Positions 9,583 to 64,000 of a stretch of 64,000 nucleotides of DNA are shown piece by piece. The notes under the pieces were generated by a model, which had not been told where the DNA came from, did no database searches, and saw only the letters and a list, made by a program, of their open reading frames with translations. The stretch covers positions 158,968,001 to 159,032,000 of the forward strand of contig CM097885.1 of the NCBI GenBank assembly GCA_044892525.1, read 5' to 3'. How positions within the stretch are numbered: the stretch's first letter is position 1; the number at the start of each line of letters is the position of its first letter. A program made the translations under genes and the position numbers. Origin of the DNA: Schmidtea polychroa. Taxonomy: Eukaryota.

Positions 9583-9849
9583 AATGTTGAACTGTATTTG
9601 ACTTTTGATTGATTTTGATGATCAATTAATATAGGTAATTGACCTATATTAATTGATCATCAAAATCAATCAAAAGTCAAATACAGTTCAACATTGTCTA
9701 GGGTAGGCAAGAAAAACGCATGCCGATACAAAAAATTACAAGATGAAAGAATATGATTCCAAATTTCAAAACAATTGTTTTGAAATTTGGAATCATATTC
9801 TTTCATCTTGTAATTTTTTGTATCGGCATGCGTTTTTCTTGCCTACCCT
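9583..9849. repeat. Two back-to-back long palindromes
   Basis: 9583-9695: 54-bp perfect arms with a 5-nt spacer; 9700-9849: 75-bp perfect arms with no spacer; 4 nt apart. Confidence 0.95.
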
Positions 9850-12437: not shown

Positions 12438-15318
12438 CAGTGGCGTACCAAGGATTTCTGGGGCCCTTGTGCAGATTTTGGGACGCACAAAATATTTGTC
12501 GAACAAGTGATCCGAGGAACCAAACCATAGGCAGGCTTGGGGGAAGGTGATTAGCAACTCTCTGAGTAAATTTGCGCATTTTAAAACAGAAATAGTAGCG
12601 TTTCGGGTTGGGTTGAAAGGATATTTTGTTACTTCTCGGTATTCTCTGTATATAGAATGGGCACATGCCAGGTACCATCATGATATAATGAACAATAATT
12701 GTTGTTATTGTCACTAATTTATTGAAACATAATTCTTAGAAAAAACTCAGATCATACGCTTATTTCACCATAATATAAAATTGAATCACATGATAAAAAG
12801 AAAGAACAAATCAAACATATGTCCTAATTTAGTTGGACACGATTCAAGTTTAAGATTTGTCAAAGGCTAAAAATCCCAAAAGTTAAAATGGCCGTTTGCG
12901 CGCCTTCTCTTGAGCAAAAATATCGACCACTTTTGAAATGTCAAGCTTTCTTGCATGTTCGTTTTCTATCGATAACATCGCTAGGTCGGTTAATCGCCCT
13001 TCATACATGGTACTTCTTAGATAGTTTTTTATGAGCTTTAATTTGGAAAATGATCGTTCGCAGTTTGCAACAGTCACAGGCAAAGTCAACAGCAACATGT
13101 AAGCGGTGCAGACATCACTTAATGCAGATGATAAAGCATAATAATCCACAAGTAGCAGTTGGGCAATTTCGAATATGGTTGGTTTGGTGGCTAAATTGGA
13201 ATGAAAGCTTGCGCGAAATGACAACAGTTGAGCTGGAAACGAAGGCGAAATATCGTTATCGTATTCTTTAGCTAATAATTCGGCCGCTGTATACAGTTCA
13301 TCGTCAGAGGCAATCAATAATGTAGATGGTAACAGAGCGCTAAACGTTGCAGCCAGTGAACTGAGGCTAAGAAATCGCAGTTTGATTTGTCTGCATGCTT
13401 TATCCACCGTAGCCAAAAATACGTTCAATCTGAAACGTTTCTCAATTGATGCAGCTTTCGGCTGCTTCGCGACTATGCGTGCCTGAACTCCCGAATAAAT
13501 ACCACTCATAGTAGCCGCGCCGTCATAGCCTTGACCGCGCAGTTTGGTGATTTCCAAACCATTATCTGTAATACATTTATTTACAAGAGTGTCACACAGA
13601 CCGCTAGCAGATGTATCATCGACCACCAAAAAACCCATAAATGACTCACAAATTTTCAACTTCACCGGTTTGCCTGCTTGGTCTGTTTCAATACAGACGT
13701 AACGAATAACTTGACTAAGTTTGTCGATTTTACTGATATCTTGGGTAGTATCCACCATAATTGAGAAAAATGGCGCAGCTTTTACGTCTTTAAGTATGTC
13801 CTCCTTGATGCATCGAGCTACCATGGTAATCACTTCATTCTGTATGGTGGGACTGAGATACTTCACAGTACCTTGGGGCATTCTCAACAATTTTTCAAGG
13901 ATGGGATCATACCTTGCAAGTAGGTTGATAACAGACAAGAAATTACCACAGTTTTCATTCCCGTTAGTTCCGACATCTTTTTCCCGGTGGCCTCTGAATG
14001 CCAAATTCGCCCCAGCCAGCATAAACGTGACGTTTACTATTCTGTCAATAACTTGTCTCCAGTAGCTTGCTTCCTTCCTTATGCCATCTTCAATTTCCGC
14101 TGTTAATGTTCTGTTCATGCGCCACTGTTCAAGAACCATGCAACATTGTATGTGGTCGACGGATTTTTCATGAATATCCAGCACATATGTCAGATGACCC
14201 CAGTCACGGAATCCTCTTACCCAAGACTCATCACGATTTTTCGAAAACAGCCAATATGCGTGGCAATATACGCAGTCGCCACTAGGCGAATAAGCTAGAG
14301 TAGTGCGTTTCAGTTTTACGCCTGCTTTATTGATTTTATTGTAAAACGATTCGGAGAAGCATCGTCCTTTCTGGCCGAGATCTCGTGGAAACGGACCAAG
14401 AGGTTGACATGGACCAAAGGAAATTATCAACAAATGCTCTCCGAAATTTGCTTTGTCAGTGAGATGTTTTAAAGCAGTTCGTGCCTCCACAAAAGTGTCA
14501 ATATTGCTCTGAGTAAAAGCTGAAGTAATTGAAGGGCCATATTTCTCATCGTCGGCGCTGTTTCCTAAATCTGGTGTCAATATTTGATCATCCGCCGTAG
14601 ATTCCACAGTGTCATTCTGCTCAGTGGCGACATCTATAGCCACCGCCATCTCTGAGTTGATCAAAGCTGAATTCGATTCAGTCACCATATCTGAAGTAGG
14701 CTTCGATATCGGTTTAATATCCACGGGCTTTAGAAATTCGTAAATTTTCGGCATTTTAGCGGCCTTCTGTTCTTGTTCCTCACGTGCTCGTCGCTTAGCA
14801 GCCCCACTTAAATATGACTTAGACATAGTTAAGGGTGTGCAGCTAATGCAATTATATAATATCCAACTAATTATGCAATTATTGTAAATTGATATACAAT
14901 AAGCAATCCTTTTTACCGCATAGTAAATATCAACAAAACTCTATGACCTCTGCCATGATGTCGTTATACCGCCATTTTGAATCGAGTAGGCAAGTAAATT
15001 GGATTTGACGTTTTATTAATAAACAAGTCCTCGTCACATAAAAAAACCAACGTCAAGTAAATCAAATAATTTAATAGATGAATGGGTGTGACATATGTGG
15101 TTTACAACTATATCCAATATAGATTCCTAATAATATTAAATGTATAAACCGTCCAAACTGTGGTTGCTGTCTTAATAAAAACAAAACAAACGCCAAAGTG
15201 ATGCTTGGTTTGATGACAATCGGGGAATTTATAATGCTCGAACGTATAAATTTTACTAATTTTTCGTCCTGGGCCCTTGTGCCGTGCACAACCTGCACAA
15301 CCTATTGCTACGCCATTG
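12438..15318 (-). mobile_element. hAT element (ZMYM1-like transposase), both termini intact
   Basis: TIRs CAGTGGCGTACC / CAATGGCGTAGC; 8-bp TSD TATTGAAT at 12430-12437 and 15319-15326; subterminal GGGCCCTTGTGC at both ends. Confidence 0.95.
12883..14826 (-). CDS. hAT transposase (TTF-type Zn finger, DUF4371-like region, DDE, dimerization domain) with an apparent in-frame internal deletion
   Basis: 647-aa open frame; motifs LAFRGHRE, FSIMVDTTQDIS, GQGYDGA, TVANCERSFSKLKLIKNYLRSTM; the HCxxHxLNL segment expected after QPKA is missing. Confidence 0.9.
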   Translation of the reverse strand: MSKSYLSGAAKRRAREEQEQKAAKMPKIYEFLKPVDIKPISKPTSDMVTESNSALINSEMAVAIDVATEQNDTVESTADDQILTPDLGNSADDEKYGPSITSAFTQSNIDTFVEARTALKHLTDKANFGEHLLIISFGPCQPLGPFPRDLGQKGRCFSESFYNKINKAGVKLKRTTLAYSPSGDCVYCHAYWLFSKNRDESWVRGFRDWGHLTYVLDIHEKSVDHIQCCMVLEQWRMNRTLTAEIEDGIRKEASYWRQVIDRIVNVTFMLAGANLAFRGHREKDVGTNGNENCGNFLSVINLLARYDPILEKLLRMPQGTVKYLSPTIQNEVITMVARCIKEDILKDVKAAPFFSIMVDTTQDISKIDKLSQVIRYVCIETDQAGKPVKLKICESFMGFLVVDDTSASGLCDTLVNKCITDNGLEITKLRGQGYDGAATMSGIYSGVQARIVAKQPKAASIEKRFRLNVFLATVDKACRQIKLRFLSLSSLAATFSALLPSTLLIASDDELYTAAELLAKEYDNDISPSFPAQLLSFRASFHSNLATKPTIFEIAQLLLVDYYALSSALSDVCTAYMLLLTLPVTVANCERSFSKLKLIKNYLRSTMYEGRLTDLAMLSIENEHARKLDISKVVDIFAQEKARKRPF

Positions 15319-25657: not shown

Positions 25658-27646
25658 CACCTAACTGCGAAAGTTAACATTGTCTATAATATACGTTGGT
25701 GTGCACACCACATGAGGTGAGTCACCAATTATATGACAATGTTAACTTAATTTCATTTTTTCAATTTTTCAAAAATCGTTTTAAGGTAAGTTTTTGAATT
25801 GAAGTAATTTTTAGGACTTGAATTTTGATTTTATATAATTATGAGAATATTATTCAAGTTCTTAAATATTACTGTTAGTCATCTTTTATAATTTATCATT
25901 TATAAATATATTAATAATTAAATTTCAGGTGTTTTTTTAGGAAATTTATGATATTTTATGCATTAATATGGAATTATTTCGCTAAAATGTAAGTTAGATA
26001 TTTTTATATTTATAAATAAATAAAATTAATCACCAAACACATTTATTTTTTTAAGACATTTAGGGAAAAATCGGCGCACATGAATGAAATAGTTTTTAAA
26101 TTTTTATAATCTTCTTTCTGCAGCTCATTTTCGATGGCTTCTTTGACGATGTCAAATCTGCTTGGGAAGGACATTGAACTGAATCCATTTGTCCTTGATA
26201 TTACTTTCTGATGCTGCCTTTGATTTTACTAAACACGCTTTCTATTGGATTGAGGAATGGGCTATATGGTGGCAGGTGTTCTATATAATTATTCGGAGAA
26301 ATTGCTCCACTATGAATTGAAGCATTGTCATGAATGAGATGGTATCCTGTCCCATTCAATTTTATACTTAATTCATTAATAAAATTTTGGTATGTATCCT
26401 TTTTGTAGGATCCTACAATTAATTGGTGATGAATTGCACCTTTCACACCTATTGCTAACAGAAATGACATGTTTTGTCCTCGATTATTTGAAACTATGGA
26501 GTATATTCTTTCTCCTTTTTTCTTCCTTCCGTAGGTTTGTGTAGTCCACGTATTGAAGCCGCATTCATCAATATAAACGATATTTTTATCTCGCCAGACT
26601 TCTTCGAGAAAACGCGTGACATACTCCATTCGGATTTGAAGTACGCGATCTGAATTTCTTGCTTCCACACATGGCCTTACCTTTTTAACCGTTATTAAGT
26701 AATTTTTTAGAAATCTTGAAATAGCAGTTGTGGATGCCGAGCAATTTTTTTGTAAAAGGAAAATTCGCATTTTTTCTGACGTTGCATAAAAATTGGCTTC
26801 GACAAAATCCAACAAATTATTTCCCTGTTCTTCTGAAATAATTTGTTTTCTGCCACTTCTTTTTCCTTTTGTAATTTCGGCATATTTCTTATATTTGTAA
26901 ATTATTGAAATAATTGAATTTTTGGGGATTCCGAGCAATCTTCCAAATTCTTTATAATTGTCCCCATTTTCAAATGCATTAATAAGCCGAATTTTGTCAT
27001 TGTCTGTAATTCTTTGAAAATATTAATTTGTTAAAATAATTAATTAAAATTTACGATTTGCGATTTTTTTTCTGCAAATTCGAAGTTGTCGAAGGACCTT
27101 CTTCAATATTTGAAATGGTACCTTCACACAAAGAAATATCTGTTATACTGTAAAATATTTTAATATTTTATATTTTAATGAATAAATCTTACATTGTCAG
27201 ATCTTCAACTTCGCAAAAAGCCACTGTGTCCTGTGAAATATCTGTAAATCTAAAGAAAGTTTATATTCTAAATTATTTTATAATTAAATCTTACGATGTA
27301 TCTTCTTTTTTTCCCTATAGCTCAACGTAGAGCAGTCAGAATCTGATTCAAAAGTTTTTTTGTACATAACTTTTTAAATAATTTTAAAATATTGATATGT
27401 TAATTATATGTTAATCAATGTGAATTTCGCATGAAAACACTTTACTTAATTTTGTATGTATTTTTCATTATGTGTGCTGTGCTTGTATGCTTAATTATTT
27501 TCTCTCACTTTTTAGATTCCTATAATAAATATGGTAAATTTCGCAGCATTAAATTTCTACACACAGGTAAGTTTGTGTGTTCCTATAATATATATTTATT
27601 GATTTTTTTTTAGATTGTAGATAATGTTATATTTCGCAGTTAGGTG
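25658..27646 (-). mobile_element. Tc1/IS630-superfamily DNA transposon
   Basis: ~30-bp TIRs CACCTAACTGCGAAAGTTAACATTGTCT / AGATAATGTTATATTTCGCAGTTAGGTG, each flanked by TA; transposase inside. Confidence 0.88.
26201..27020 (-). pseudogene. Tc1-like DDE transposase, C-terminus frameshifted
   Basis: HTH region, YIDECGFN, IHDNASIH, LPPYSPFLNPIE; the frame extends upstream of the track start (RITDNDKIRLINAFENG) and the C-terminal tail continues in another frame. Confidence 0.85.
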
Positions 27647-34145: not shown

Positions 34146-35541
34146 ATGGTAAATATTTAAATTGATTGTTGAGTCCATATTGTTTTTCAAAATATTTAGG
34201 AATCATTAAACAAGAAAGCAGTTGAAAATTTCTGTGAGTATTTGAAATGTGAAACTGTCCATCCAAATCCGGATTATTCGAAAGCTGTTGAATTTCTTAC
34301 ATCCCAATCAGTTCAGTTGGGATTGGAGTTAACTGTCATTGAATTGTGCCCGAACAACCCAATAGTAATAATGAAATGGAATGGTAGAAACAATGATTTG
34401 AAAAGTGCAGTGTTCAATTCACATATTGATGTTGTACCTGTGTTCCCTGATCAATGGAAATATCCTCCTTTCTCTGCTCACATCGATGATAATGGTAACA
34501 TCTATGCTAGAGGTTCTCAAGACATGAAATGTTGTGGCAGTCAGTATTTAGAAGCAATAAGACGAATAAAATTTCATTCACCAGATTTTATACCAGAAAG
34601 AAACATTTATATTTTATTCGTACCAGATGAAGAAGTTGGTGGTAGTAAAGGAATGGAAAGGTTTGTTGAAAGTCAACAATTCAATGAAATGAATGTTAGA
34701 ATCTGAAATGGATTTTGAATGTCTAAAAGTTATTCAACTTTAGATTGGAATCGTTATGGATGAAGGTATAACAAGCACTGAGAATAAGTATCCAGTGTTT
34801 TATGGAGATAGAATTTTATGTTGGATAAAAGTTCATATCAGTGGATCTACTGGCCATGGATCCCAGTTTATTAAAAATACAGCCGGGGTTAAACTTAAAT
34901 TGATTTTGAATAAGTAAAGACAACCGGCTATAAAATACAATTTTTAATTCTCCGTTAGATTTATGAATTTCCGCGAACAAGAGGAAACTAGAATGATAGA
35001 AAATAATCTTACTCTGGGAGATGTCACAACAGTCAATCTTACTGGTGTAACTGGAGGAGTACAGCATAACGTCATTCCGTCTCCATTCACTTTGGATTTC
35101 GATATTCGAATTAGTCCAAAAAGAAATGTAGCAGAATTTAAAGCCATGCTTAATGAATGGGCAAGAGAATGTGGCGATGGAATTGAATATGAATTTGTTC
35201 AGCACCCGTCAAGCGCGTACCTCACACCGATTGATAGCAGCAACAAATGGTGGGTAGCGTTTCAATCTATATGCAATTCCCTTAATATGGAAATCATTCC
35301 ACAGATATTTCCAGCTGGAACTGATAGCAGGTTTAATTGTCTGATTTTCCGGTATTGGTTTTAATAACAGTTCAGGTTTATCCGAGAAAAAGGAATCCAT
35401 GCAATTGGGTTTTCCCCAATCAATAATACTCCGTTTCTATTGCATGACCACAATGAATGCCTCAATGTCGATACGTTCATTCATGGAATCGATTTCTATG
35501 AAAAATTGATTTTGGAATTTTCAACGATGAAATATGATTAA
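34146..35541 (+). CDS. ACY1: Aminoacylase-1 (M20 peptidase family), 5 exons: 34146-34148, 34200-34694, 34744-34913, 34959-35330, 35376-35541
   Basis: Four GT-AG introns (51, 49, 45, 45 nt) give one continuous frame with motifs TVHPNPDY, FNSHIDVVP, YARGSQDMK, PDEEVGG, MDEG, GHGS, FPAGTDSRF, GFSPINNTPFLLHDHNE. Confidence 0.94.
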
Positions 35542-36543: not shown

Positions 36544-37496
36544 TTACAAACCGAAATTACCGTCCCAGTAGTTAAGCTGTACGTCTACTAATACTGTATT
36601 CATTAAACGTTGAAATGTTGCTGGAGCATTAGTTAACCCAAAGCGTAGTCTTATATACTCATAATAACCGTCCTCAATCACAAAAGCAGTTTTTCCGCGC
36701 CCCTCTTCCATTTGGATTTGAATGTACCCTTTATTTGCATCTATAACTGTGAAATACTTAGTATCCCTAAGTTTATCATATTGTCCTAGTGCTCTCGGGA
36801 ATGGGTATGAGTCTTTTACTGTTACATCATTTAATTTACGATAATCAATGCACATTATAATTTCCCCGTTTTTCTTTCTAACTGGTACAATAGGCGATGC
36901 CCATTGTGATAAACTTTGTTTTATTACACCTGCCTCTTTTAATTCTCTAATCTGTCGCTTTATTTCCTCCCTCAATTTATACGGTACGCTGTAAAGTCTT
37001 TGTTTTATTGGTCTAACATTCTCTGTATCAATCACATGTTTGATAATATTAGTATCTCCTAAGATGAATTCATGTTTTGCAAAAAAATCGCTATATTCAT
37101 AAAGTAGTGTTTGTAGTTGTAATTGTTGTGTTTTATCATAACATTTAATATTATTAGCTCTACTCGGTTCGACCATTTGTTCACTGTTATCCCTAATCGT
37201 TGAAATTTTGCACACCTAGATTCACCTTTGTGTAATTTCCCCAATTTCGTACCTTAATGAATCTTACTGTATTCCTTTCATAGTTCGCAATTCTTATTGG
37301 AATTTTCCCATGGTTAATATTACATTATGATTCCTTGCTATTGCTGTTTCTGGCTGGAAGATGAACGTGTTCTCACGTTTAATATTGACTTTTGTCGGGA
37401 TTATATGATAGCAGGGGTATTTTAATTCGAACGCTTCTAATGGAATTACTTCTGAAAATTTTGCGTTTTAATATACTGTTTTCCGCTTGACTATAC
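36544..37496 (-). pseudogene. Ty3/gypsy pol, linker plus N-terminal RT (downstream part of the interrupted element)
   Basis: SQWASPIVPVRKKNG...MCIDYRKLNDVT...GKTAF...FGLTNAPATFQRLMN; the upstream linker IPIRIANY...GTKLGK is frameshifted; truncated before YxDD. Confidence 0.92.
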
Positions 37497-37538
37497 TGGT
37501 GGGTTACAGGTGGTCGAATGATTAAGTGCTGTTACCAG

Positions 37539-39101
37539 CAGGGCTGTGGAGTCGTATCAAAATGGACCAACTCCGACTCCGACTCCGACTCCGACTCCGA
37601 CCTAGGTCTAACATGTATAAGATCTTTTTTTTTATTTAATACTATTAAATTTAGGTTTTTAAAAAATGAGCAAAAAATAAGTTAAATACAAAACAAATCT
37701 TTTTTAAAATATTATATTGTTTTATTCTTTGATCATAATTTTTTAATTTTTAAAATATATTTCTTAAAAATAAAATTGCTTCAATCAAATCTTCTTTAAG
37801 CAATGCACGCAGGTCTGACTTAATTATTTTCAGAGCAGAGAACAATCTTTCAACACTGACTTGCGTTGGCGGTAAAGCGGTTACAATTCTAGCTACATTT
37901 TGAATAATTTTTGGGTACACATCAATAGCTTCTTGGACGTTCAATTTCGATGATCGATCATATTTTTCAACTTCCTCCAAAGCGGTAAAAAACTCATTTT
38001 TAAACTTCTGCTCTTCTGTATCTGGTTCCTTTTCATGATATCGCTTTCGTTTTATAAGATCCAATTGATTTAAATATTTTTCAAAATCCACATCTTCATT
38101 TGAACTGGAAGAAACTGATTCCTGACTGGAGGTGATGTTAAAATGCTCGATCTGTGTTTCACGATTTAGTGCCGGAAAACATTTGATGCGAACGGTGATT
38201 TGATAGAGCGTTTCTTTGGCTTTTGCAATATGAAGGTCATTTAGTAATATTCGGCTCATTGGATCAATATAAATAGCGGCTAATAAAATTTCATTTTGCA
38301 AAAGCAGTAGTTCCCTTTTATTCATGGAAGATATAATAGCACTGGAAATCGGTTCATCAGTGCGGGACAACTGATAAATTAAGTTTTTCCACTCAAAAAA
38401 GAAGGTCCCAGGAGTTATATCTTCAGTTTGTAATTTTTTAGAATTTCCCATCTGATGTAATTGAAAAATGCTTAAGTAATGCCGATTTTAATTTTTTATC
38501 CATGTTGAGGCCTTTGAAAATACTAAATTTTTAACTGCAAATATTAAAAACAATACTATTAAACTCGAAACTTATTAAAGTAATTGCAAATAAATAATTT
38601 AAACACAACTTACGTTTTTAATGCACACAAAAAAAACTTTATTTAACTTCCCTACAACAAAAAATTTCACGATGTAGTTTTGTATTTATTAATAATTTCA
38701 GTTGTTGTCTAGTTTATTTTAAAAAAATTACTAATGCTCTTTAATTAAGATCAGCATGTATTTATACCAAAATTAAACTAGGATAATAATAAATTTATAT
38801 GGGTTTTAGAATTATTTGTAATTTTCTTATATTTACCTGTCTGACAACCGTTTTTTAAAAATATTCTTAGAGATTCTTAGAAAAGCAAAAGGTAAAAATT
38901 GTTTATTAAATAATTCTGAAAAAGATAATTTAATTGCTATACAAAATCCTAAAAATGTTGAAAATTCCTCTTAAAATTTTAAATTTTACTCGGAGTCGGA
39001 GTCGCTTCTGTTAACTCGACTCCGACTCCAGCTCCGACTCCCCAAAAATGCACGACTCCGCGACTCCGGACTCCGACTCCAGCTCCGACTCCACAGCCCT
39101 G
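37539..39101 (-). mobile_element. Internally deleted hAT element nested in copy A
   Basis: Perfect 16-bp TIR CAGGGCTGTGGAGTCG/CGACTCCACAGCCCTG; 8-bp TSD GTTACCAG; (CCGACT)n subterminal arrays; ORF 37750-38451 ends in the hAT dimerization motif PPTQVSVERLFSALKIIKSDLR. Confidence 0.96.
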
Positions 39102-39320
39102 GTTACCAGCGTAACCCAACATGCAACATTAGTTTCCGCTTGGTACCCGTTGAGTAATCAACGTTGGTACTGTACCAAGGGGTTGAATACTCGCAAAAAG
39201 TGAGCGCATCAAAGCACTATAATTGTCGAGTACTCCATGGGTTCACGGACTACCGATAGAAGGTGTGTGTCCGATTTCTCAGGTCCCTTTATCAAAATTG
39301 TTTTCCCAACCTTACACACA
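39102..39320. ncRNA. Conserved hairpin-rich terminal block of copy A (candidate structured RNA/ssDNA element)
   Basis: Closely similar to 63168-63390; several stems conserved, one compensatory pair; no known RNA family recognised. Confidence 0.4.
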
Positions 39321-39472
39321 AGCTCTCGTTTCTCAGGCAATCATAAGCATCTCAGACATTATCTAACTCTACAAAATACGTATTATTGTAACAACAAAAA
39401 AAATAAATATTATTTTAGTACTACAAGGTATATCAAACACACTACAAAATTACATAATCATGGAGTAAAAGT

Positions 39473-39942
39473 TCAACTCGGCCGGTTGGTGGGGCCGGTT
39501 AGTCCCGTCGTAGACGTTTGCGACGAACCCGCTTGCCTTTCGTATTCAGCCAGTCTGGCCTTCTTTAATTTTTCACGGATGTTTCGCCCAAGCCGTTTTC
39601 TTTTGGGCTTATTTTCAGCGGCTGGGGGATATATGGTTGCGAGTTCAACGGCCAGTGGCCTTATTTGTCTTGCTGCGGATTCCTGCACAAACTGCTCATT
39701 TCGTTCGGTTTCGAGCACCCGCACCTGCACCTTCAGGGCGCGAATCTCCATTTGGTCCTGAGCGGCCTGTGTCTGCAGCTGGAGGATCTGGGCGGTTTTC
39801 TTCTTCATGGCTTCGGGACTAAACCAGGTCCCTTCGAACTCTCGACATTTTCCCTTCAACTTGTCCACCCGGACCCGGAGTTCGTCAGCACGTTGTTGGG
39901 CCTGCTCCCGATCCTTCCGGAGATTTTCCATTAACTTGTACA
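39473..39942 (-). CDS. Coiled-coil protein of unknown family (ORF2 of copy A)
   Basis: Open GC-rich frame after a TTTTAG acceptor; KCREFEGTWFSPEAMKK motif shared with the 44860 and 52044 copies; basic C-terminus KPKRKRLGR. Confidence 0.7.
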
Positions 39943-40166
39943 CTAAAACACAACAGTTGTCAGTTTCCTTCATATCGAATAAAATGAAAATGTAAATTAT
40001 TAATTAACATTAGCAATTCCCGGTTACGACCTTATTGCACTTATTCAATTTACTATATGAATTCTAAGACTCCAAAAAAGAAATTTCCTTTATTTAAATA
40101 ATACACATTAGAAGATAGCGGTGCTATAGATATAATGACTAAAATAAGTTATTTATAGTCTAATAA

Positions 40167-40532
40167 TCACGCTTGGCGTTTGCGGGGCCTTCCTCTTTTT
40201 CTCGGGGGTACCGTGGCCTCCTCCAATTCTTCCAGGGGCACTCCCTCCCTTTCTGCCCGGATTTGCATCTCTATCTTCTTAAGCCGGATCTGAGCGGCTT
40301 TCACATCCCAGGCCGCTTGATCTCGGGCCTCCTGTAACCGGTTATTCTCCGGCTCCACCTTCACCCATACCGGGGCATCTACTTCGGGGCCCGTCCGGAT
40401 TACTCGATCTGCGCAATCCAGGTCCCGTCCCTGACCCCACCGATGTATATGGTACCAGATGTACCGGGTCCGGAGTCGGGTGATCGTCTGCTGGTCAGTA
40501 CCCTCGTCACTGCTAGAGCTGGATTGAGACAT
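40167..40532 (-). CDS. AT-hook protein of unknown family (ORF1 of copy A), 121 aa
   Basis: ATG at 40532 two nt after a TTACAG acceptor; ITRLRTRYIWYHIHRW motif; C-terminal PRKRGRPRK AT-hook; homologous to 51094-51558. Confidence 0.75.
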   Translation of the reverse strand: MSQSSSSSDEGTDQQTITRLRTRYIWYHIHRWGQGRDLDCADRVIRTGPEVDAPVWVKVEPENNRLQEARDQAAWDVKAAQIRLKKIEMQIRAEREGVPLEELEEATVPPRKRGRPRKRQA

Positions 40533-41792
40533 GTCTGTAACATAAACATTAAGACCCATACATAACCACTGTGACTTATAAATAGACGTCACAACAAAAC
40601 ATACAGAAATTTCTTGTTTAAAATCAATAATACTTAACTACTAAATTTATTATAATTAATATAAATACTTCTAACATACCCAAATTTTATTTAATATATT
40701 AATATACTTTTTAATTAAGTAAATTAAGGAAAAATTTACTAAAGTTAAGTGTTAACGTTAAAAAATTCGTACCCGAACCGAAAATCTCCAAAAATGGTTT
40801 TGTTTAAAATTATTATTTTAATCATTCGGCATTTATTTACCACTGGTTGGTAATTTGGATTTTATAAGTTAAAATTTTTGAATTTTTTAGGTAATTTTTA
40901 GGTAAAAGTGAATATCTCCACTAAATGCGGTTACGCCAGGCGAAGGGTACTAGTGGTGAGCTCAGTCTCTTGCTCACTTACTCTTCCCCTGGTTGTATTC
41001 GTTATAAGTGGTAAAATCATCATTTATCCGTTTGTGGTAATCTATTTCTTGATCTTATATACCTAATTTAGGGACAATTTGATGATTATTTTCCCCAGCT
41101 GGAGCTATCGAGGTTCAGTTTCAGCAGTTCGTCCTATGACTCTTGATCAGGAAATCATGGCTTGTATTCATAAAGATTGTGTGAGTTGATTGATTGAAAG
41201 GGAAAAATTAATATTGAATCTTTTTTTAGTTGCAATTGACGACTTGTAGCCTTGCACGAACATTGATTAACTTGTTTGTATTCTGTGCGCTTTCAATATT
41301 CTATTGTCGTTTCAATATGAGATTTTTATTTGTCTAAATTTATTGCAATTGTCAAATTTTATTAGTCAGTTATTATTGTAAACAAATTTATTCGAACAAA
41401 GTAGTAATATTTAATGAATTTATAAATGTGAGCAACCGTTAAACATGATAAATATACTAAAGTCGATGAATGAAAATACTATTACCATAATATCTGCATG
41501 TAATTTGCTTTTATATGAAGAAACCCAAATATTTGGTTGGTTTGTAATGTGGTTCTAATTTAGAAATTTTTCATCTAAGTCATTTGGTATTAATGAACAT
41601 GAAGCAGTTATGGTTAATATGCTTTTGCCTACTTTAATTGAATTTATAAAGAAGTTGTATGTTTGTTTTTCGTTCGGGATTTAAGGGTCAGATTGCATAG
41701 TTGCTCATACGTCCTCACCCATATCCCCCGGTGACTTGAATAATGGTAAGGGGGGGTGTTGCTAAAAATAGTCTTCAGAATTCTGATCCCTC

Positions 41793-41803
41793 TGATTGGC
41801 TCG
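41793..41803 (-). promoter_or_regulatory. CCAAT box (CGAGCCAATCA) in copy A
   Basis: Identical 11-mer at 49836-49846 in copy B; both lie ~1.25 kb upstream of the ORF1 ATG. Confidence 0.55.
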
Positions 41804-42399
41804 GAGGGTCGTTTCTAAATTTAATTTCTTGGGGAAATCCTAAAATCAATATCAGATTGGGATATTAACTTTGACAAGTAATAATAATTGTTAATAATAA
41901 TAATATATAATCAGTGTAGTATTTATACATTTACTAATATATTCCACCATGACTAAGTGTATATGTATATATATATCTACAATTAAATTATATATATTAA
42001 GAACAATATTAGTAAAAATAATAGTCAAGTCATATATAACTGATCATTAATAGTAATAATAGCAACAATAGAGATAANNNNNNNNNNNNNNNNNNNNNNN
42101 NNNNNNNNNNNNNNNNNNNNNNNNNNNNNNNNNNNNNNNNNNNNNNNNNNNNNNNNNNNNNNNNNNNNNNNNNNNNNNNNNNNNNNNNNNNNNNNNNNNN
42201 NNNNNNNNNNGATAATAAGAATAATGGTAATAATGATGGTAATATTAGCATTAACAGCAATAATATTAGGGTTAATATAATTTTACATGGTACAATTCGA
42301 AGCTTATATTTCTTATTTTAAAGATTTCTATTCTATGATTTAGAAAGTTACTTTTGGTAATTTATAAATTTCTGTTTCTAATTTAAATTTTATATTTTT

Positions 42400-42665
42400 C
42401 AATTTACACATTTATACGTTATAATTTCTAATTGTATATATTATAGTGTATAACTTAATAATTTATGATTTTATACTTTATATTTTATAATTTTATATTT
42501 TATAATTTATAATTTTATGTTTTACGATTCAGTGGTTTAGATTTTATAATTTATAGTTATATATTTCGTAGTTCATAATTTTATATTTAATAATTCACGA
42601 TTTTTAGGTTTTATACTTTAGGATTTTATATTTCATAATTTATGATTTTATAATTTATACTTTAT
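42400..42665. repeat. Degenerate (ATAATTTTATATTT)-like low-complexity tandem array inside copy A
   Basis: Repeated TTTTATA units. Confidence 0.7.
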
Positions 42666-44372
42666 GAATTTCTAGTCAGCTTTACATGACTTTTTATAAG
42701 TTACTTTTGTGGGATCATCATAGTTTTCTAAAAGGTTTTCAAGTTTGTCGGTAGCTATTCCCAGACTCTATTCCCGAAGTTCCACGTTTATGTATAATTA
42801 ATAAAGAAACATTTCCGATACCCAAAATCTATAGCTCCTAATCGGGATTTTCCATTAATGACTTACATCAATATAATTAGCTCTAAGATCTTACAACTAT
42901 TTATACAATTATAGCTAAATATTTATACATTAATGAATGTTTAAAGTGGGAATTGGATTTAAAATCCTTACATTTACTTTGAATCAGCATAGCTAGATTA
43001 AGTTGTACCTGCACGTATGCCGAATATCTTTCTTATCTCTATTACTTTATCAAAATTTTCTATTACAAAATTTAGTTCGGCATATGTCCAAGTATAATTG
43101 AAATTACTGTGATGAATCAACTAGCTACATTAATGTGAGTGCAGAATTGTGTAATTTTAGGTACGAGCTCTGCTCAAATTAGAACCTTAGTGTAGAGTTA
43201 TTATTCAGGATTTTAAGTTTTGATTTTAAATATGTGTTGCATAGAAGGTCGGGAAGAATATTGCTTCCATGGCCCCACTGTGACCACTTCCACAAACCTT
43301 AGTGTTGAGTGTTGAGTCAACCATTTACGATCGACCTTACATAAATACAAAGAGTCAGGCGTAGGGTTTCCTCGACCTAACTCCATGGCAGGACCATGAA
43401 GTAGTTCGACCTCCGGCTGACCCGAACAAAAAGGGTTTTTATAGATAATAATAATGCATGTGTGAATGAGAAGTAGAATTTAAGAATTATATGCAGGACC
43501 GATCAGAGACGTACTCGGACGCCGCTGATCCGTCGAGAATTACTAGAACATAAAATCTTAATAATATTCTTAATGAACAAAAGATTGATATTAATATAAT
43601 TACGTAGCATAAAATTACATCAAATCAAAAGGCTTACTAATAATTTTCCAGAAAATTCTTCAGCAAAATATTGGCATAAAGATTGATTGTGACTGAAACG
43701 TGTCAGTATATATACATATTTAGTACACGTGTATGTATCGATGCATTAAAACAAACTCGAATTCTTTTTATTCCAGAATTTTCTATTTTGCGATTTTGAT
43801 ATTTTTAATGGCAATTTTTGTGCCATAATTTTTGTTTTTATTTTTATATTTTTATTTTTTAATTATTTTTCGTTAAATTGACGTCCATGATGGATTTGAA
43901 ACGGTTCCAGAACATTCTATTTTACTTTTAATTTAATTTTTATTCTAACGGGTGTTTTTATGAATTTCTTTTTAAGATTTTTTATTTTTATTACTAATTT
44001 ATTTATTTTTTCCTAAATTTTATTGTTTAAGGTAGCTTTTATGATGGTCATCACCATTTTTATGGAATGTTCTGGGTTTTTCTGGAATTTTTTACTGTTT
44101 TTACCATCTTTTAAGTTATTCGAGTTTGTTTTTTGTAACTCTATGTTTATTTGGTTATTTTTGAGTTAGATTTTGCATAACTTCTTGCTTTTGTATAATT
44201 TTATTTAATTTCTGTGTTTATTTTTTTTGTTACTTTCTCCTTTAATTACCATTGTTTATTTGGTGTAGTTTTGATATATTTAGTTATACTTCTTGCTTTT
44301 TGCATGCTGTGTACTTACACATTTCAGTCGCAATTAGATATTTTGGGTCTAGAAGTCAGTTCTAGCCCAACA

Positions 44373-44700
44373 ATACTGTCTGTTAAATCGAATACAGTGT
44401 TTTAATTTGTGGAGTATGTCCATTCCTAAGACACAAAAGCATTTACATTCTCTAACTACTTTAAAAACATGTTCCACCACTTGATCTGAGAAGTGGACTG
44501 TTAATTATATATCGCCTTTTAACGGTATAAAATGGTATGATAGTGAGATTACTCTATCTTTCGTACTTAATATATTTCTCTTTTTATATTCCGTTAATTG
44601 GTCTTCCCTAATCATATAAGCTGCTGCACCAGTATCGTGGTGATAGGTCTAACCTCATCGTCCAACATATCTTTTATTTATCATGCCGGTCCATTCATTA
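44373..44700 (-). pseudogene. Ty3/gypsy aspartic protease (upstream part of the element split by copy A)
   Basis: DTGA active-site codons at 44625-44636 and CVLGMDIL at ~44418-44435; across the ATAC TSD it continues as DLTDSIVKRKTVY*NAKFSEVIPLEAFELK into 37496 and below. Confidence 0.8.
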
Positions 44701-44859: not shown

Positions 44860-45251
44860 ATGTGGCTCGTAAAGGCCGAGTCTCTGGTGCAGAAATGCAG
44901 AAGGCTTGAAGCAACATGGTTCCGACTAGAGCATGTCCACAAATTACAAAAGAGAATCGAACCCGTTGAAAAGTCTCAGGTCGAAGATCAGGGAATCATC
45001 TCAAGATCACAATCCTATAGCACACACAAAAAACTATTGAGCTTCGTGCTGAGATACATACAGATGCAGGAGTGGGTCGAGTGCCGTCCTACTTAGAAAC
45101 CGAATTGTTTCCGACTGTCACGCCTTTCCTTTCCATGATTTCAACGGCGGCTCCAGTCATCAAGAAACCATGCAAATCCAAGCCCGGAAAGTTCGAGAGG
45201 AAAAAGATTCGAGAATTGAAGAGAGATCAGAAGGGCAAGCAGAAGAAATAA
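44860..45251 (+). pseudogene. Third, frameshifted copy of the ORF2 coiled-coil gene (copy C fragment)
   Basis: VQKCRRLEATWFRLE...KSQVEDQGII, then in another frame VTPFLSMISTAAPVIKKPCKSKPGK*; preceded by (TA)n. Confidence 0.65.
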
Positions 45252-51093: not shown

Positions 51094-51558
51094 ATGCCTA
51101 ACATCAGACCAGAAGACGGCCACGCGAGCCCCTCGGCATCTGCATCAGGACTCAGCACAACCCAAGAGGAGGCAGACGAATCCACCAGACTGAGCCGAGA
51201 TGAAGAAATCACCCGACTGAGGTCCCGGTGGATCTGGTGCAAGATTCACGACTGGACCTACCAGAATGTGTTCCCGGTGATCCCGAAGGTAGAGCCCTTC
51301 GTCAACGCCACCTCCCTCGCTCTGATCGAAGCCTTTGAAAATGTCAAGGCTGCCATGGATCAACTACAACGGCTCGAGGATGCAACCCTAGCCGGCGAAC
51401 TGGAGGACATCGACGGGTACGCTAGGTTGCAATGCTACCCGGAACGGACAGCTACCATTCGCCGTGGCGTGGAACGCCCAAGGAGTCAATCACGGGGTTC
51501 CGAGCAAGCACGAAGGCGGGGGCGTCCGCGGAAGAACCGTCTCACATCGGATAGGTGA
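51094..51558 (+). CDS. AT-hook protein of unknown family (ORF1 of copy B), 154 aa
   Basis: ATG two nt after a CACAG acceptor; ITRLRSRWIWCKIHDW, KVEP and VKAA motifs; C-terminal RRRGRPRK. Confidence 0.75.
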   Translation: MPNIRPEDGHASPSASASGLSTTQEEADESTRLSRDEEITRLRSRWIWCKIHDWTYQNVFPVIPKVEPFVNATSLALIEAFENVKAAMDQLQRLEDATLAGELEDIDGYARLQCYPERTATIRRGVERPRSQSRGSEQARRRGRPRKNRLTSDR

Positions 51559-52043
51559 CCGTTGGACTGAATCATAACCCCTGTGACTAAACCTCATTTG
51601 GGCGCGTCTCCTTGTGGCGACTTTCCTTGCCAAATGGAAAACTAGTGTAGTTTTAGTTTGTCTTGACTTCGTTATAATCCATGTACGATGTACTATTATT
51701 TGATATCTTGTTTTGATTTAAGTGTTATCATTGTGTAATTTTGTAGTGATTTTATTATAATCCACGTGTGAAGTGTTATTCCTTTGTATTTTGTTTATTA
51801 ATCCGATTGTTTAGAATTCATCATAAAATACGCTTAAAATGGTATTATCTTATATTTTGTCTACTATCCCCAACCTCATAGCGTTTAGTAAGATCCATAA
51901 GGCTAAGTCTGGGGTTCAAATCTGCATTAATGTGAGGTTGCGACTTGGGGATTGTGGCTTATACTGCGAGGGGAGTAGCAGTAGGGCGTGGAAACTTGAC
52001 GAGAGTACGAGAAGTCATATTATTAATTACGTTTTTGTTTTAG

Positions 52044-52427
52044 TGATAAAGCTCTTAGAAGATATGCCAAGAAGATATATCAAGGCCCACTGCCGAAATT
52101 TCGGAAGTACTTGGTTCCCGCCAGCCGAGATGAAGAAGCGCCTGAAACTGATTTCGCAGTTGCAGTTGCAGAGTGTGAGAATTGGAAACCCAGATCCACC
52201 AACAACCAATCGAGTAAGACACGATCTGCAAGATCCAACCGATGACCGAAATTTTCTGCAAACCGAAGGGACTCGTATCTTCCATCCTTCCTAGGAAGAA
52301 AATCGGACCGGGTAAGGCTGCTTGCGCTAGAATACGACAGGCCAGCCTGGCCCAAACACCAAGTCAATCGATTCCCCAAGGACTACCCCGAAGGAGTCTA
52401 CCAGAGCCTCATGAACTCGTGATATAA
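52044..52427 (+). pseudogene. Frameshifted ORF2 coiled-coil gene of copy B
   Basis: After a TTTTAG acceptor: IKLLEDM...HCRNFGSTWFPPAEMKKRLKLISQLQLQS; homology continues in shifted frames (RELET, KIQPM, RKKIG, RLLALEYDR). Confidence 0.7.
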
Positions 52428-56078: not shown

Positions 56079-58456
56079 ACGGGTAACTCCATTCCTAATA
56101 GCATGACTATTCCTAATAATATGATCATACTATTATTCCTAATAAAAAGTCATACTATTAAATAGTATGACCATTAATATTTAATGATTTTTTAAAATTC
56201 TTTTGTATCAATAATACAATTTCTATAATAATATTTTCTTATAAATCACCCCAATGAAAAAAAGAAGATTTACAATTGCTTTTAAGAAAGAAGTGATTTC
56301 ATATATGGAGCTTGGAAATTCATGTTATAAGGCAAAAAACATTTTCGGCGACAGAGATAATCAATCTATGTTTCAGCAGTGGTATAAGAACAAAAAAGCG
56401 ATTAGTGCACAATCTGCATCGCTGAAAAGAGCGTTTGGAGGCGGAAGGAAGCCTTTGCTGGGATCTCTTGAAGAATTAATTTTTGATGAAATTATTGAAT
56501 TAAATATAATGAAAATAAAAGTTACTCGAACTTTCATATCCGATCGCGCTATTACATTAGGAGAACAAAATTATATTGACATCAAAGCTTCAAGCCGCTG
56601 GATTGACGGTTTCATGAAAAGAAAGGGATTGTCGCTTAGAAGAGCAACTAACTTTACGAATTTATCAGATGATACGTTAATTTCACATGCCATTAATTAT
56701 ATGGGTTTTTAACAGATACGATCCCTAATGTTGACTTGTCGAAAACATTGTTAATGGATGAAACAGCTGTTTATTTCGAGGATAATAGGAACCATACAGT
56801 TCATTTAAAAGGACGGAGACACGTAATAATGAAACCAACAGTGTTTTATTCAGCCCAAAGAAAAGAAATATAAAACTTGTGGTAATACCCGGCGGATTAA
56901 CCCCCTATATACAAGTAGGAGATATTTTTAAAGAATTTAAAGACATAATTTTCAGTTTTATTAATATTTTATTATAATTTTATTAATATTAGGAAATAGA
57001 ATACATGTTAGGTTCGATGGGTAGTTACTCAAACTAACGCAGTTGTAAATCTGATTCCAATAGATTTTACTGATAGAAAAGCGTGTAATTGATTTTATGC
57101 AAATAAATAAATAACAAATATGGTTTTAAATATTTATTAAATATAAATGGATATATATGTTACAAAAACGATTCAAAATAAATGAAACCCAACCCTGGCT
57201 GTACGCTGAAGTTCAGATAACGGTTATTCAAACCGCCCTAAAGATTACTTATAAGTTTCAAGGCTGGCCCTAAATGCGCCAACAGCCCTATATAGGTGAC
57301 AAGACAAGATAAGGGATTTCCCGAGATTTATACGCGATACTATCAACCCAAAAAATTGGTTGATAGTTTATTTGTATAAGCCAAAACAGCTACAAAAATA
57401 TTTGCTGATGACTAAGCCCTGTTAATTTTTTATACAATATAAATAGAAATTAATTAACTAATTTATCTGTTCGGATTCCCAAGTGTCCTCTGTAAAAACC
57501 AGAAATAGTTATGGTTAAATCAAAACTAAAATTCTTTCGCGAAGTTAAAATTCCAAGATCGCTTCTTTCCAAATATTAACAGAACGTAGATCGATTTGTC
57601 GTAATTAATTTTGACGCATTTATTAAATTATCTGTAAATGTTAGATCTAGTTTGTGTGAGATTCGATGATTGCAAGTATTTGTTGATAGTAACTTCTCGA
57701 ATTGGTATGCTTCAGTTGATCTGACTATTGTTCGTCCAACTAATTTGTCAAATTTTTTTCTGACTATTTTTGTCCTCCAACTAAAATTTTGTACTGATAT
57801 TTATATTATTTTAAAATAATTAATTCTATTTTTAGTAATTTTTTAATTACTAAATATATGTAATTATATTTATTAAAATATTATTATTATTTATAATCTA
57901 AATAGTAATTTTTAATTACTATTTATATTTTAATCCTAACTATAGTAATTATTTTCTATTTTAAGTAATTATTAAACACTAATTATAGATAATTTATTTA
58001 ATTTTCTAAAAAATTCCTAATGTAATTATCCCGGCTCCTACTGACCCCAACATACACAAGACGTGGAAATCCCAAGGCTCCTAGCCAAGGGCTTGTGAAT
58101 CTTTGGATTAGTAATGCTTGGAGCTCTATGTCTATCCAAAACATAAAAAACTCTTCAATCGGCTGGGTTTTCGGAGAATTTCGAGGATTGGCATATATCT
58201 AAACATGATATTTATGGTGAGAGATTCCGAAACGAATTTATTAATTCGATATTTGAAAATTCAACACCAACTCAGAACGAGTACGATTTTGAACCAGATG
58301 TATTTGCTCTAGCTGATGAATGATTAAAAATACAATTATGTTTTTTATGTTTCTATAAATTCAAATAGTATGACTAATTTACTTAACCATGAAAAGAATT
58401 TTTATTTTTGGTCATATAATTAAATAATATGACTCATACTATTTGGAGTTATCCGT
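56079..58456 (+). mobile_element. pogo/Tigger-type (POGK-like) transposon, decayed, with ~1 kb internal insertion
   Basis: TIRs ACGGGTAACTCC/GGAGTTATCCGT flanked by TA; CENP-B-type HTH ORF 56254-56712, LMDETAVYF, VIPGGLTPYIQVGD, and C-terminal YTRRGNPKAPSQGLVNLWISNAW at ~58050. Confidence 0.8.
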
Positions 58457-63127: not shown

Positions 63128-64000
63128 TGGTAGGTTACTGGTGGTCAAATATTTATTCTTTACTGCTGTTACCAGCGTAACCCAAAATACAACGTTGTTT
63201 TACCGCTTGATACCCGTTGAGTAATCAACGTTGGTACTGTATCAAGTGGGTGAGTACTCGCAAAAAGTGAGCGCACCAACGGCTCTATAATTGTCGGTTA
63301 CTCTATGGGTCGACGGACTACCGTTATAAGGTATGTGTCCGATTTACTCAGGCCCCTTACCGAAATTGTTTTCCCAAACACCCTCATACAAATTTTCAGT
63401 TTTGGTTCGATTAATATACGTAGTTTGAGACGCGGTCTCGTAATGCTACTAATTACCCCATCAAAGAATAATCTTCTGCAATTTATTGATCAACTATCAG
63501 TGTTCACCATTCATCAATCGCAAACATTCGCGTTTATTTCAACAATCTTTACAAATTAAGGGAAAAGAAAACGGAGAATGTTCGAGAACTGAATTAGTTA
63601 AATTAGATCTGGTCTTTACACTTGAGTACGGAATAGGTGATGTCCATGTAAAATACGTTATTTCGCTCGTCATTACTAGTTCCACACCCGTTACTACATC
63701 CCTTAACATTATTGATCGAAAGTTCCTCATTATTGTGCATTGAGAAGTTCATACGCACGCCACGTTATAGCAAAACTAGTTTAATGTCTCTCGAAGCTAA
63801 TTATATCACCCTGCCGATTATTGTTACCAAAATTCATGATAATGTATTACTGAAGTTATATTATTAATCATATCTTTATTATTTCAAACAACGCGCCATA
63901 ACCGTCGTTATAGTGACGCTTGCCTGTGTGTGATTACATAACGGCATTTTTGCTTATGTGTGCTAGGGCGACTCCTCAGACAGATTTGCAGGTGTGTACT
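63128..64000 (-). mobile_element. Copy D: terminal block of another family member, extends beyond the window
   Basis: Begins TGGTAGGTTAC (cf. TGGTGGGTTAC at 37497) and aligns with 37497-37538 plus 39110-39320 for ~260 bp. Confidence 0.78.

Follow-up and report, generated by a model that had tools for sequence, protein, structure and literature searches.

A gene-carrying solo long terminal repeat of a Burro-type giant Ty3/gypsy element in Schmidtea polychroa, with two selected genes that are likely exchanged as a cassette

How does a unit with retroviral-type ends, two protein-coding genes and neither reverse transcriptase (RT) nor integrase come to lie inside the pol gene of a gypsy element? 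The question is raised by positions 37497 to 44372 of a 64,000-nucleotide stretch of the Schmidtea polychroa genome (assembly GCA_044892525.1, contig CM097885.1, positions 158,968,001 to 159,032,000 of the forward strand), which is called the window throughout. An earlier note on this DNA left two answers standing, namely a very long long terminal repeat (LTR) that encodes its own accessory genes and a non-autonomous gene cassette mobilised by an integrase, and it suspected a link to the giant Burro elements of planarians. We found that the unit is a solo LTR, with its sense strand on the window minus strand, of a 30-39 kb Burro-type Ty3/gypsy element. Its two genes are under selection, are likely the element's own regulators and are likely exchanged as a cassette, a reading that we hold with confidence somewhat above even.

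The unit is bounded on the minus strand by TGTTGGG (44372) and CCCACCA (37497) and is flanked by ATAC on both sides, just as the earlier note had described. The insertion and its host comprise the following features.

37497 to 44372, minus strand: solo LTR of a Burro-type giant Ty3/gypsy element, with termini identical in paired and solo copies
37493 to 37496 (left copy) and 44373 to 44376 (right copy), no strand: target-site duplication ATAC, present in a single copy at empty sites
37539 to 39101, minus strand: nested truncated hAT transposon with terminal inverted repeats, private to the present copy
44373 to 44640, minus strand: decayed host gypsy protease region, upstream of the insertion
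36544 to 37496, minus strand: linker and truncated RT of the host gypsy element, on the downstream side of the insertion (RVT_1, E-value 5e-13)

The hAT insertion, in which a hAT dimerisation domain was detected, starts 34 bp inside one LTR end and is flanked by the 8-bp duplication GTTACCAG (37531-37538 and 39102-39109); removal of the transposon and one copy of this duplication leaves a net LTR length of 5,305 bp. RT and integrase domains were looked for inside the unit and none was found, in line with the earlier observation. Both flanks are present in all seven relatives of the host element, the flank alignments abut at the junction in six of them, and each of the five printed junctions carries one copy of the target site, so that excision does rejoin the gypsy protease to its linker and RT as had been proposed. 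Since the host pol is decayed, with stops and frameshifts on either side of the insertion, this rejoining rests on homology and not on an open frame. The host RT is 42% identical to that of the element owning the LTR, and by this comparison the host pol is unrelated to that element.

The identity of the unit follows from its copies in the AT-rich, 781-Mb genome, which was searched as four large contigs; the first 18 bases of the LTR occur there without mismatch at 2,512 places, and the LTR-primer junction at 393. Among the 40 best matches to the 5' kilobase of the LTR, 20 are solo copies with matching 4-bp duplications of their own (two of them in low-complexity DNA), whereas the other 20 are attached to internal sequence as 13 5' LTRs and seven 3' LTRs; the primer site was seen in 12 of the former, and the remaining one was assigned through its partner's duplication. 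Six of the seven pairs are spaced 30.6-36.6 kb apart and one 43.6 kb. A 38.7-kb copy with two LTRs and an outer CTAT duplication encodes, in order, gag, MATH, a Monjiviricetes-type fusion protein, protease, RT, RNase H, integrase, a weak ankyrin match, TRAF, BIR/RING and unknown open reading frames (ORFs); the Pfam matches to MATH, TRAF, BIR and RING are strong, that to ankyrin is weak (E-value 0.016), and Monjiviricetes_fusion precedes the protease. The primer site lies 8 nt past the LTR end and is complementary to tRNA-Pro(TGG) genes of the same genome, and its position sets the sense strand as the window minus strand. Thus the genome search proposed earlier yielded paired LTRs around gag-pol, fixed the polarity and bore out both the very long LTR and, by element architecture, the suspected Burro link. 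The alternative of an integrase-mobilised cassette without a parent element would account for the half of the closest copies that stand alone with their own duplications, but the other half enclose gag-env-pol and show both a primer site and one outer duplication, and an excess of solo copies is expected from LTR-LTR recombination; we regard this alternative as refuted and its remaining probability as negligible.

The polypurine tract, which the earlier note had listed alongside the primer site, was not found before the 3' LTR, where a conserved GC-rich, non-purine motif occupies its place; plus-strand priming and end processing are possibly unusual in these elements. At individual loci (L016:9001-9025, L019:6660-6690 and L278-L280) the primer site lies 8 nt from the LTR end (7 nt in a second family, described below), and in place of a polypurine tract the other end shows the GC-rich motif and a spacer of 6-8 nt. 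The tRNA-Pro(TGG) genes, which supply the primer tRNA of the elements, form a long tandem array with a 475-bp period at G000:C1:130.90-130.95 Mb (L111-L114), and the tRNA-Pro 3'-end pattern has 2,183 matches genome-wide. One further locus (L118) consists of a 3' LTR followed by the primer site and then a second LTR end, and another (L131) is an LTR with a tandem duplication of ORF1. Three copies 14.2 kb apart on contig C3 were considered as an LTR-internal-LTR arrangement and rejected; the arrangement results from a tandem duplication that surrounds a hAT-interrupted LTR.

The two genes of the LTR are as follows.

40167 to 40532, minus strand: ORF1, 121 aa, with two helices and a C-terminal AT-hook-like RGRP motif; an AG acceptor lies 0-2 nt before the ATG
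39473 to 39942, minus strand: ORF2 exon, about 155 codons, with predicted long helices (coiled coil), a W-F-x-P motif and a Lys/Arg-rich tail; it opens at an acceptor-like AG/TG

Selection was assessed in 41 non-redundant copies, obtained from 60 loci after removal of 19 duplicates or sister LTRs. Variants common to at least two of the 41 copies were counted as states without a tree, so the resulting ratios of non-synonymous to synonymous divergence (dN/dS) are approximate. The shared changes comprise 72 synonymous and 33 non-synonymous ones in ORF1 (dN/dS about 0.15) and 103 and 26, respectively, in ORF2 (about 0.08), with no stop in either; the corresponding ratios are 1.6-6.4 in shifted sense frames and 0.7-2.0 in non-coding sequence, and the antisense frame that shares third positions gives 0.27 and 0.16 with stops present. 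Third positions hold 72 of the 105 shared changes in ORF1 and 100 of the 129 in ORF2, no deletion falls in ORF2 versus 34 in the intron-like stretch, and both reading frames are maintained across LTR types at saturated divergence. By these substitution patterns both ORFs are under purifying selection, and both are coding as the earlier note had held, with the qualification that the conserved part of ORF2 opens at the acceptor-like AG/TG at 39942 and not at the upstream ATG.

The structure model of ORF1 shows two helices at a predicted local distance difference test score (pLDDT) of 65, that of ORF2 long helices and a basic tail at a pLDDT of 81. R-G-x-P is invariant in 21 of 21 ORF1 members, and the core GRP flanked by Arg/Lys is present. 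ORF1 would bind AT-rich DNA, for instance the LTR's own arrays, and ORF2 would be nuclear. Homologue and fold searches with both proteins were empty in the databases searched (one search was limited to near lengths), apart from two weak matches in one homologue search, of which the one inspected is a repeat protein, and language-model recognition of both proteins is low. The last two points would suit a view of the ORFs as chance open frames in the GC-richer part of the LTR, but the third-position excess, the absence of shared stops and of ORF2 deletions, and the frames kept at saturation refute this view, and we consider it extremely improbable.

Four further features of the LTR are as follows.

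40955 to 41011, minus strand: conserved cis block with the candidate splice donor GTAAGT (40976-40981), without coding signal in any frame
41795 to 41799, minus strand: CCAAT box of the putative cassette promoter, kept in 26 of 28 aligned copies
42288 to 42700, no strand: AT-rich 22-bp tandem array; other LTR types have arrays of 13, 41, 75 and 112 bp
39102 to 39300, continuing at 37497-37530, minus strand: conserved structured terminal block, the putative R-U5 and genomic-RNA start region

An AG directly precedes the ORF1 ATG in all 41 copies, the AG/TG at the ORF2 start is found in 38 of 39 aligned copies and in seven of eight diverged LTRs, and a GT(A/G)AG candidate donor is found at 40981 in 32 of 36 aligned copies. 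Codons ahead of the first internal ATG of ORF2 change synonymously, which suggests that the ORF2 start codon probably lies at a splice junction. A coding upstream exon was rejected, as there is no codon signal and several copies have in-frame stops; an exact exon-copy repeat was not found in four LTRs at a minimum of 20 nt. In sequencing run X1, by our guess an RNA run, contigs map to both ORFs as well as to the cis block and the terminal block, and hardly touch the intron-like stretches; missing coverage does not count as evidence here, conservation alone could produce this pattern, and the two listed joints have no intron ends. The CCAAT region and the structured end had both been pointed out earlier, and both stand. 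The terminal block is 96-98% conserved among close copies and is common to 10 of 10 aligned LTRs, cassette-less ones included; its predicted folding is supported by a z-score of -2.3 (6 of 200 shuffles were equally good) and by compensatory change at 11 of 50 predicted pairs in 13 LTRs, and an Rfam search of this end gave no match. Because these terminal ~200 nt are common to ten LTRs and show compensatory pairing, we tentatively place R-U5 there and the genes in a long U3.

Several of these features bear on a different view, in which the two ORFs are the last accessory genes of the element, spliced from its 5' leader and expressed from the 3' LTR only, as is one of the sag transcripts of mouse mammary tumour virus (MMTV), so that solo copies would be silent passengers. 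Several accessory ORFs do sit between integrase and the 3' LTR, and the acceptors are conserved across LTR types whereas the LTR-internal donor is not; on the other hand, the CCAAT box, the cis block and the donor upstream of ORF1 are conserved in type A. We rate expression from the 3' LTR alone as rather doubtful.

LTRs with shared ends fall into several types, and the ORF1 tree has two deep clades with sub-clades (the ORF2 tree is a quick version whose search was unfinished). In three elements for which both LTRs were checked, identity is 99-100% in RT, at a synonymous divergence (dS) of 0.15-0.20, and 96% in env (dS 0.21-0.22), whereas it is 38-64% in ORF1 and 43-77% in ORF2, both of which are saturated or nearly so at synonymous sites; the proportion of synonymous differences is 0.69-0.84 in ORF1 and ORF2 versus 0.13-0.24 in pol and env. 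Across all compared elements RT is 97-100% identical (dS 0.15-0.28); 16 partner tiles were fetched, five without an RT match, and this range covers all 11 RT-holding tiles, one of them over only 63 aa. Internal DNA compared tile by tile is mostly 92-95% identical from the polyprotein through the 3' LTR, and identity falls to 73-87% in the 5' leader of the type-B element. Between types, similarity is limited to the first 0.7-1.4 kb of the LTR, the ORFs and the last 0.2 kb, and the intervening arrays differ in period. The first of these regions is represented in the window as follows.

43671 to 44372, minus strand: first 0.7 kb (5') of the LTR, with 77-91% identity among LTR types that bear a cassette

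The non-coding LTR ends are far less diverged than the synonymous sites of the cassette, and a higher mutation rate is no explanation for the latter. Identity between sister LTRs is 99-99.9% in types A2, A3 and B, which indicates that these types were recently mobile, and one mosaic LTR (L196) combines an A-type ORF1 with an A2-type ORF2. Given near-identical RT genes and saturated cassette divergence between conserved LTR ends, we propose, from sequence comparison, that the cassette was likely exchanged between elements by recombination. In a positional sample of 40 LTR starts, a homologue of ORF1 or ORF2 was present in 21 (weak in one of them) and absent from 19, several of which are truncated or of a cassette-less type; ORF2 is present in 22 of 30 primer-linked LTRs.

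The cassette is absent from the other eight primer-linked LTRs, seven of which carry the 5' signature of a ~21-kb subfamily. This non-autonomous subfamily (L224/L225, L261 and L262) has cassette-less LTRs and one long gag-containing frame without env or pol. Both cassette-less elements examined inside keep gag, lack env and pol and have the same LTR ends; the existence of a gag-only derivative without the cassette fits proteins that act in trans. A further LTR (L146) has the same 5' end, a different 3' end and no sense ORF of 80 aa, and is followed by the primer site. A second family with RT 88-93% identical carries an ORF2-like gene inside a 4.2-kb LTR; the gene is single and encodes 253 aa, and no ORF1 was seen in this LTR. 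ORF2 and the second-family protein are 25-30% identical over 67-104 aa and have the W-F-x-P motif in common. An ORF2 profile also matched this protein, but its alignment already contained a near-identical row, and we discounted the match as circular. The second family (L275-L280, 150 matches) is very young, with sister LTRs 99.95-100% identical and spaced about 26.3 kb.

Taken together, the locus may have arisen as follows. An older gypsy pol would have received a full element, the body of which would later have been lost by LTR-LTR recombination. The genes would lie in a ~5-kb U3 and be expressed through spliced mRNAs, whose transcription probably starts at a CCAAT promoter within the LTR; ORF1 and ORF2 would serve as alternative 3' exons, and splicing itself may create the ORF2 start at the exon junction. 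ORF2 may be an oligomeric nuclear protein, possibly, by analogy, an exporter of unspliced RNA similar to Rev or to CERV of the Caenorhabditis elegans element Cer1; proteins of the Rev/Rex/Rem class likewise export unspliced RNA. In retroelement replication the 3' end of the genomic RNA serves as the template for U3. Where two genomes are packaged together, a switch of template within the 5' part that their LTRs share can consequently transfer the cassette from one to the other: a single switch near the LTR start, together with strand transfer in the conserved end, would place the whole cassette on another backbone. LTR swapping in plant retrotransposons is reportedly the subject of a 2010 study by Du et al., to go by its title. 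Old versions would persist through selection for variety, either as escape from silencing or in tissue niches. We extend this tentatively, as a possibility that falls well short of an even chance, to the LTR as an exchangeable regulatory module, each version of which would combine its own promoter and arrays with two proteins, an activator that binds DNA and an exporter of RNA; balancing selection would maintain many ancient versions on one replication backbone, and the thousands of solo LTRs would be autonomous two-gene units that provide these proteins in trans, including for the cassette-less gag-only derivatives.

The diversity of the cassette could also stem from a protein arms race, if the two proteins act on the host against silencing or defence and do not regulate the element itself. 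The element carries the host-interfering domains TRAF, BIR and RING, and BURRO1 is repressed tissue-specifically by SMEDWI-2 (PMC8532177). Within types, however, the ORFs are under strong purifying and not positive selection, and saturation also affects the synonymous sites, a sign of old alleles and not of fast protein change; we therefore find action on the host unlikely.

Several observations weigh against self-regulation by an exchanged cassette. Pfam AT_hook matches ORF1 below its curated cut-off, in nine of the 21 members, and the homologue and fold searches were empty as described above. The cis block also occurs in type-B LTRs, but the candidate donor is not kept there, and no read or contig crosses the predicted splice junctions. 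The genes could lie in R or U5 instead of U3. In four of the 11 RT-holding tiles, one flanking LTR only was checked, and types A and A2 have the 22-bp array in common yet differ by 36% in ORF1, so arrays and ORF1 types do not correspond one to one.

Three diverged relatives had been noted within 25 kb of the unit. Two of them proved solid.

46461 to ~52420, plus strand: truncated LTR of the diverged type B, which retains an ORF1 homologue (51094-51558) and, near 52040-52360, a broken remnant of ORF2
63128 to 63377, minus strand: 3' end of another related LTR, 87% identical over 211 bp

The third (44869-44991) is weak, with an E-value of 6e-4 in a search against the window only. Elsewhere the window contains an intron-less, frameshifted aminoacylase-like sequence, recognised by eye as M20 peptidase-like and perhaps a retrocopy (34200-35364, plus strand), a 685-aa hAT transposase (12883-14940, minus strand), a Tc1/DDE_3 transposase (26201-27022, minus strand), a Tc5-type fragment (56245-56712, plus strand) and two adjoining near-perfect palindromes of about 114 and 150 bp (9583-9849).

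LTRs are usually regarded as regulators in cis, and their solo forms as relics without coding content. About 2,500 LTR starts exist in this genome, roughly half of the positional sample carry cassette genes, and solo LTRs may thus express nuclear proteins in a stem-cell model animal. Old and apparently swappable versions on one young backbone offer a direct test of silencing escape or tissue-niche splitting, and the idea to be tested is that the LTR module is changed while the engine is kept; family definitions based on RT miss the main axis of diversity in the Burro-type lineage. The two-gene LTR cassette is apparently undescribed for this known giant family, and the most unusual part, which appears to be new, is the occurrence of deeply diverged, apparently exchangeable cassette versions on one pol backbone. 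The available parts of the literature searched, including PMC8532177, PMC11410931, PMC13238120 and PMC13524379, describe neither genes within Burro LTRs nor different types of LTR.

Among known systems, the closest are the giant gypsy-like Burro/GYPSM1 elements of planarians, which exceed 30 kb in total with an internal region of ~25 kb, encode gag, MATH, an env-like fusion protein, protease-RT-RNase H-integrase-ankyrin and BIR, and occur in thousands of copies (PMC6431247). The present element resembles them in length, internal size, domain order, the env-like fusion protein before the protease, MATH/BIR cargo and copy number, and its membership is assigned by this architecture, the comparison being with the published description and not with a consensus sequence. 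BCL2-like, ubiquitin-like and dUTPase-like motifs were found in Burro/GYPSM1 with HHpred (PMC6431247); a Pfam search of one broken copy at an E-value threshold of 0.05 gave no match to such motifs apart from a weak one to UBXL. The available part of that account mentions neither LTR genes nor LTR types.

The sag gene of MMTV is similar in being a retroelement gene that overlaps U3 in a long LTR and is read from spliced mRNAs (predicted here), with functionally different alleles in MMTV; it differs in that it belongs to a vertebrate betaretrovirus, sits in an LTR of about 1.3 kb and encodes a membrane superantigen (PMC9147501), whereas the present LTR is 5 kb long and has two small, probably nuclear proteins whose versions are 30-65% identical to one another. 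CERV of Cer1, a novel protein made from a spliced mRNA of an LTR retrotransposon, exports unspliced RNA (PMC10309623) and may serve as a model for ORF2; a basic tail and predicted helices are seen in ORF2, and no link in sequence or fold was found. In plant retrotransposons, U3 varies between subfamilies and LTRs are swapped between autonomous and non-autonomous partners, but the variable part is described as cis-regulatory (PMC10794571), and additional ORFs belong to the internal region, where most lie downstream of pol, ahead of the 3' LTR (PMC7264820); in the present elements, the variable part of the LTR itself includes protein genes.

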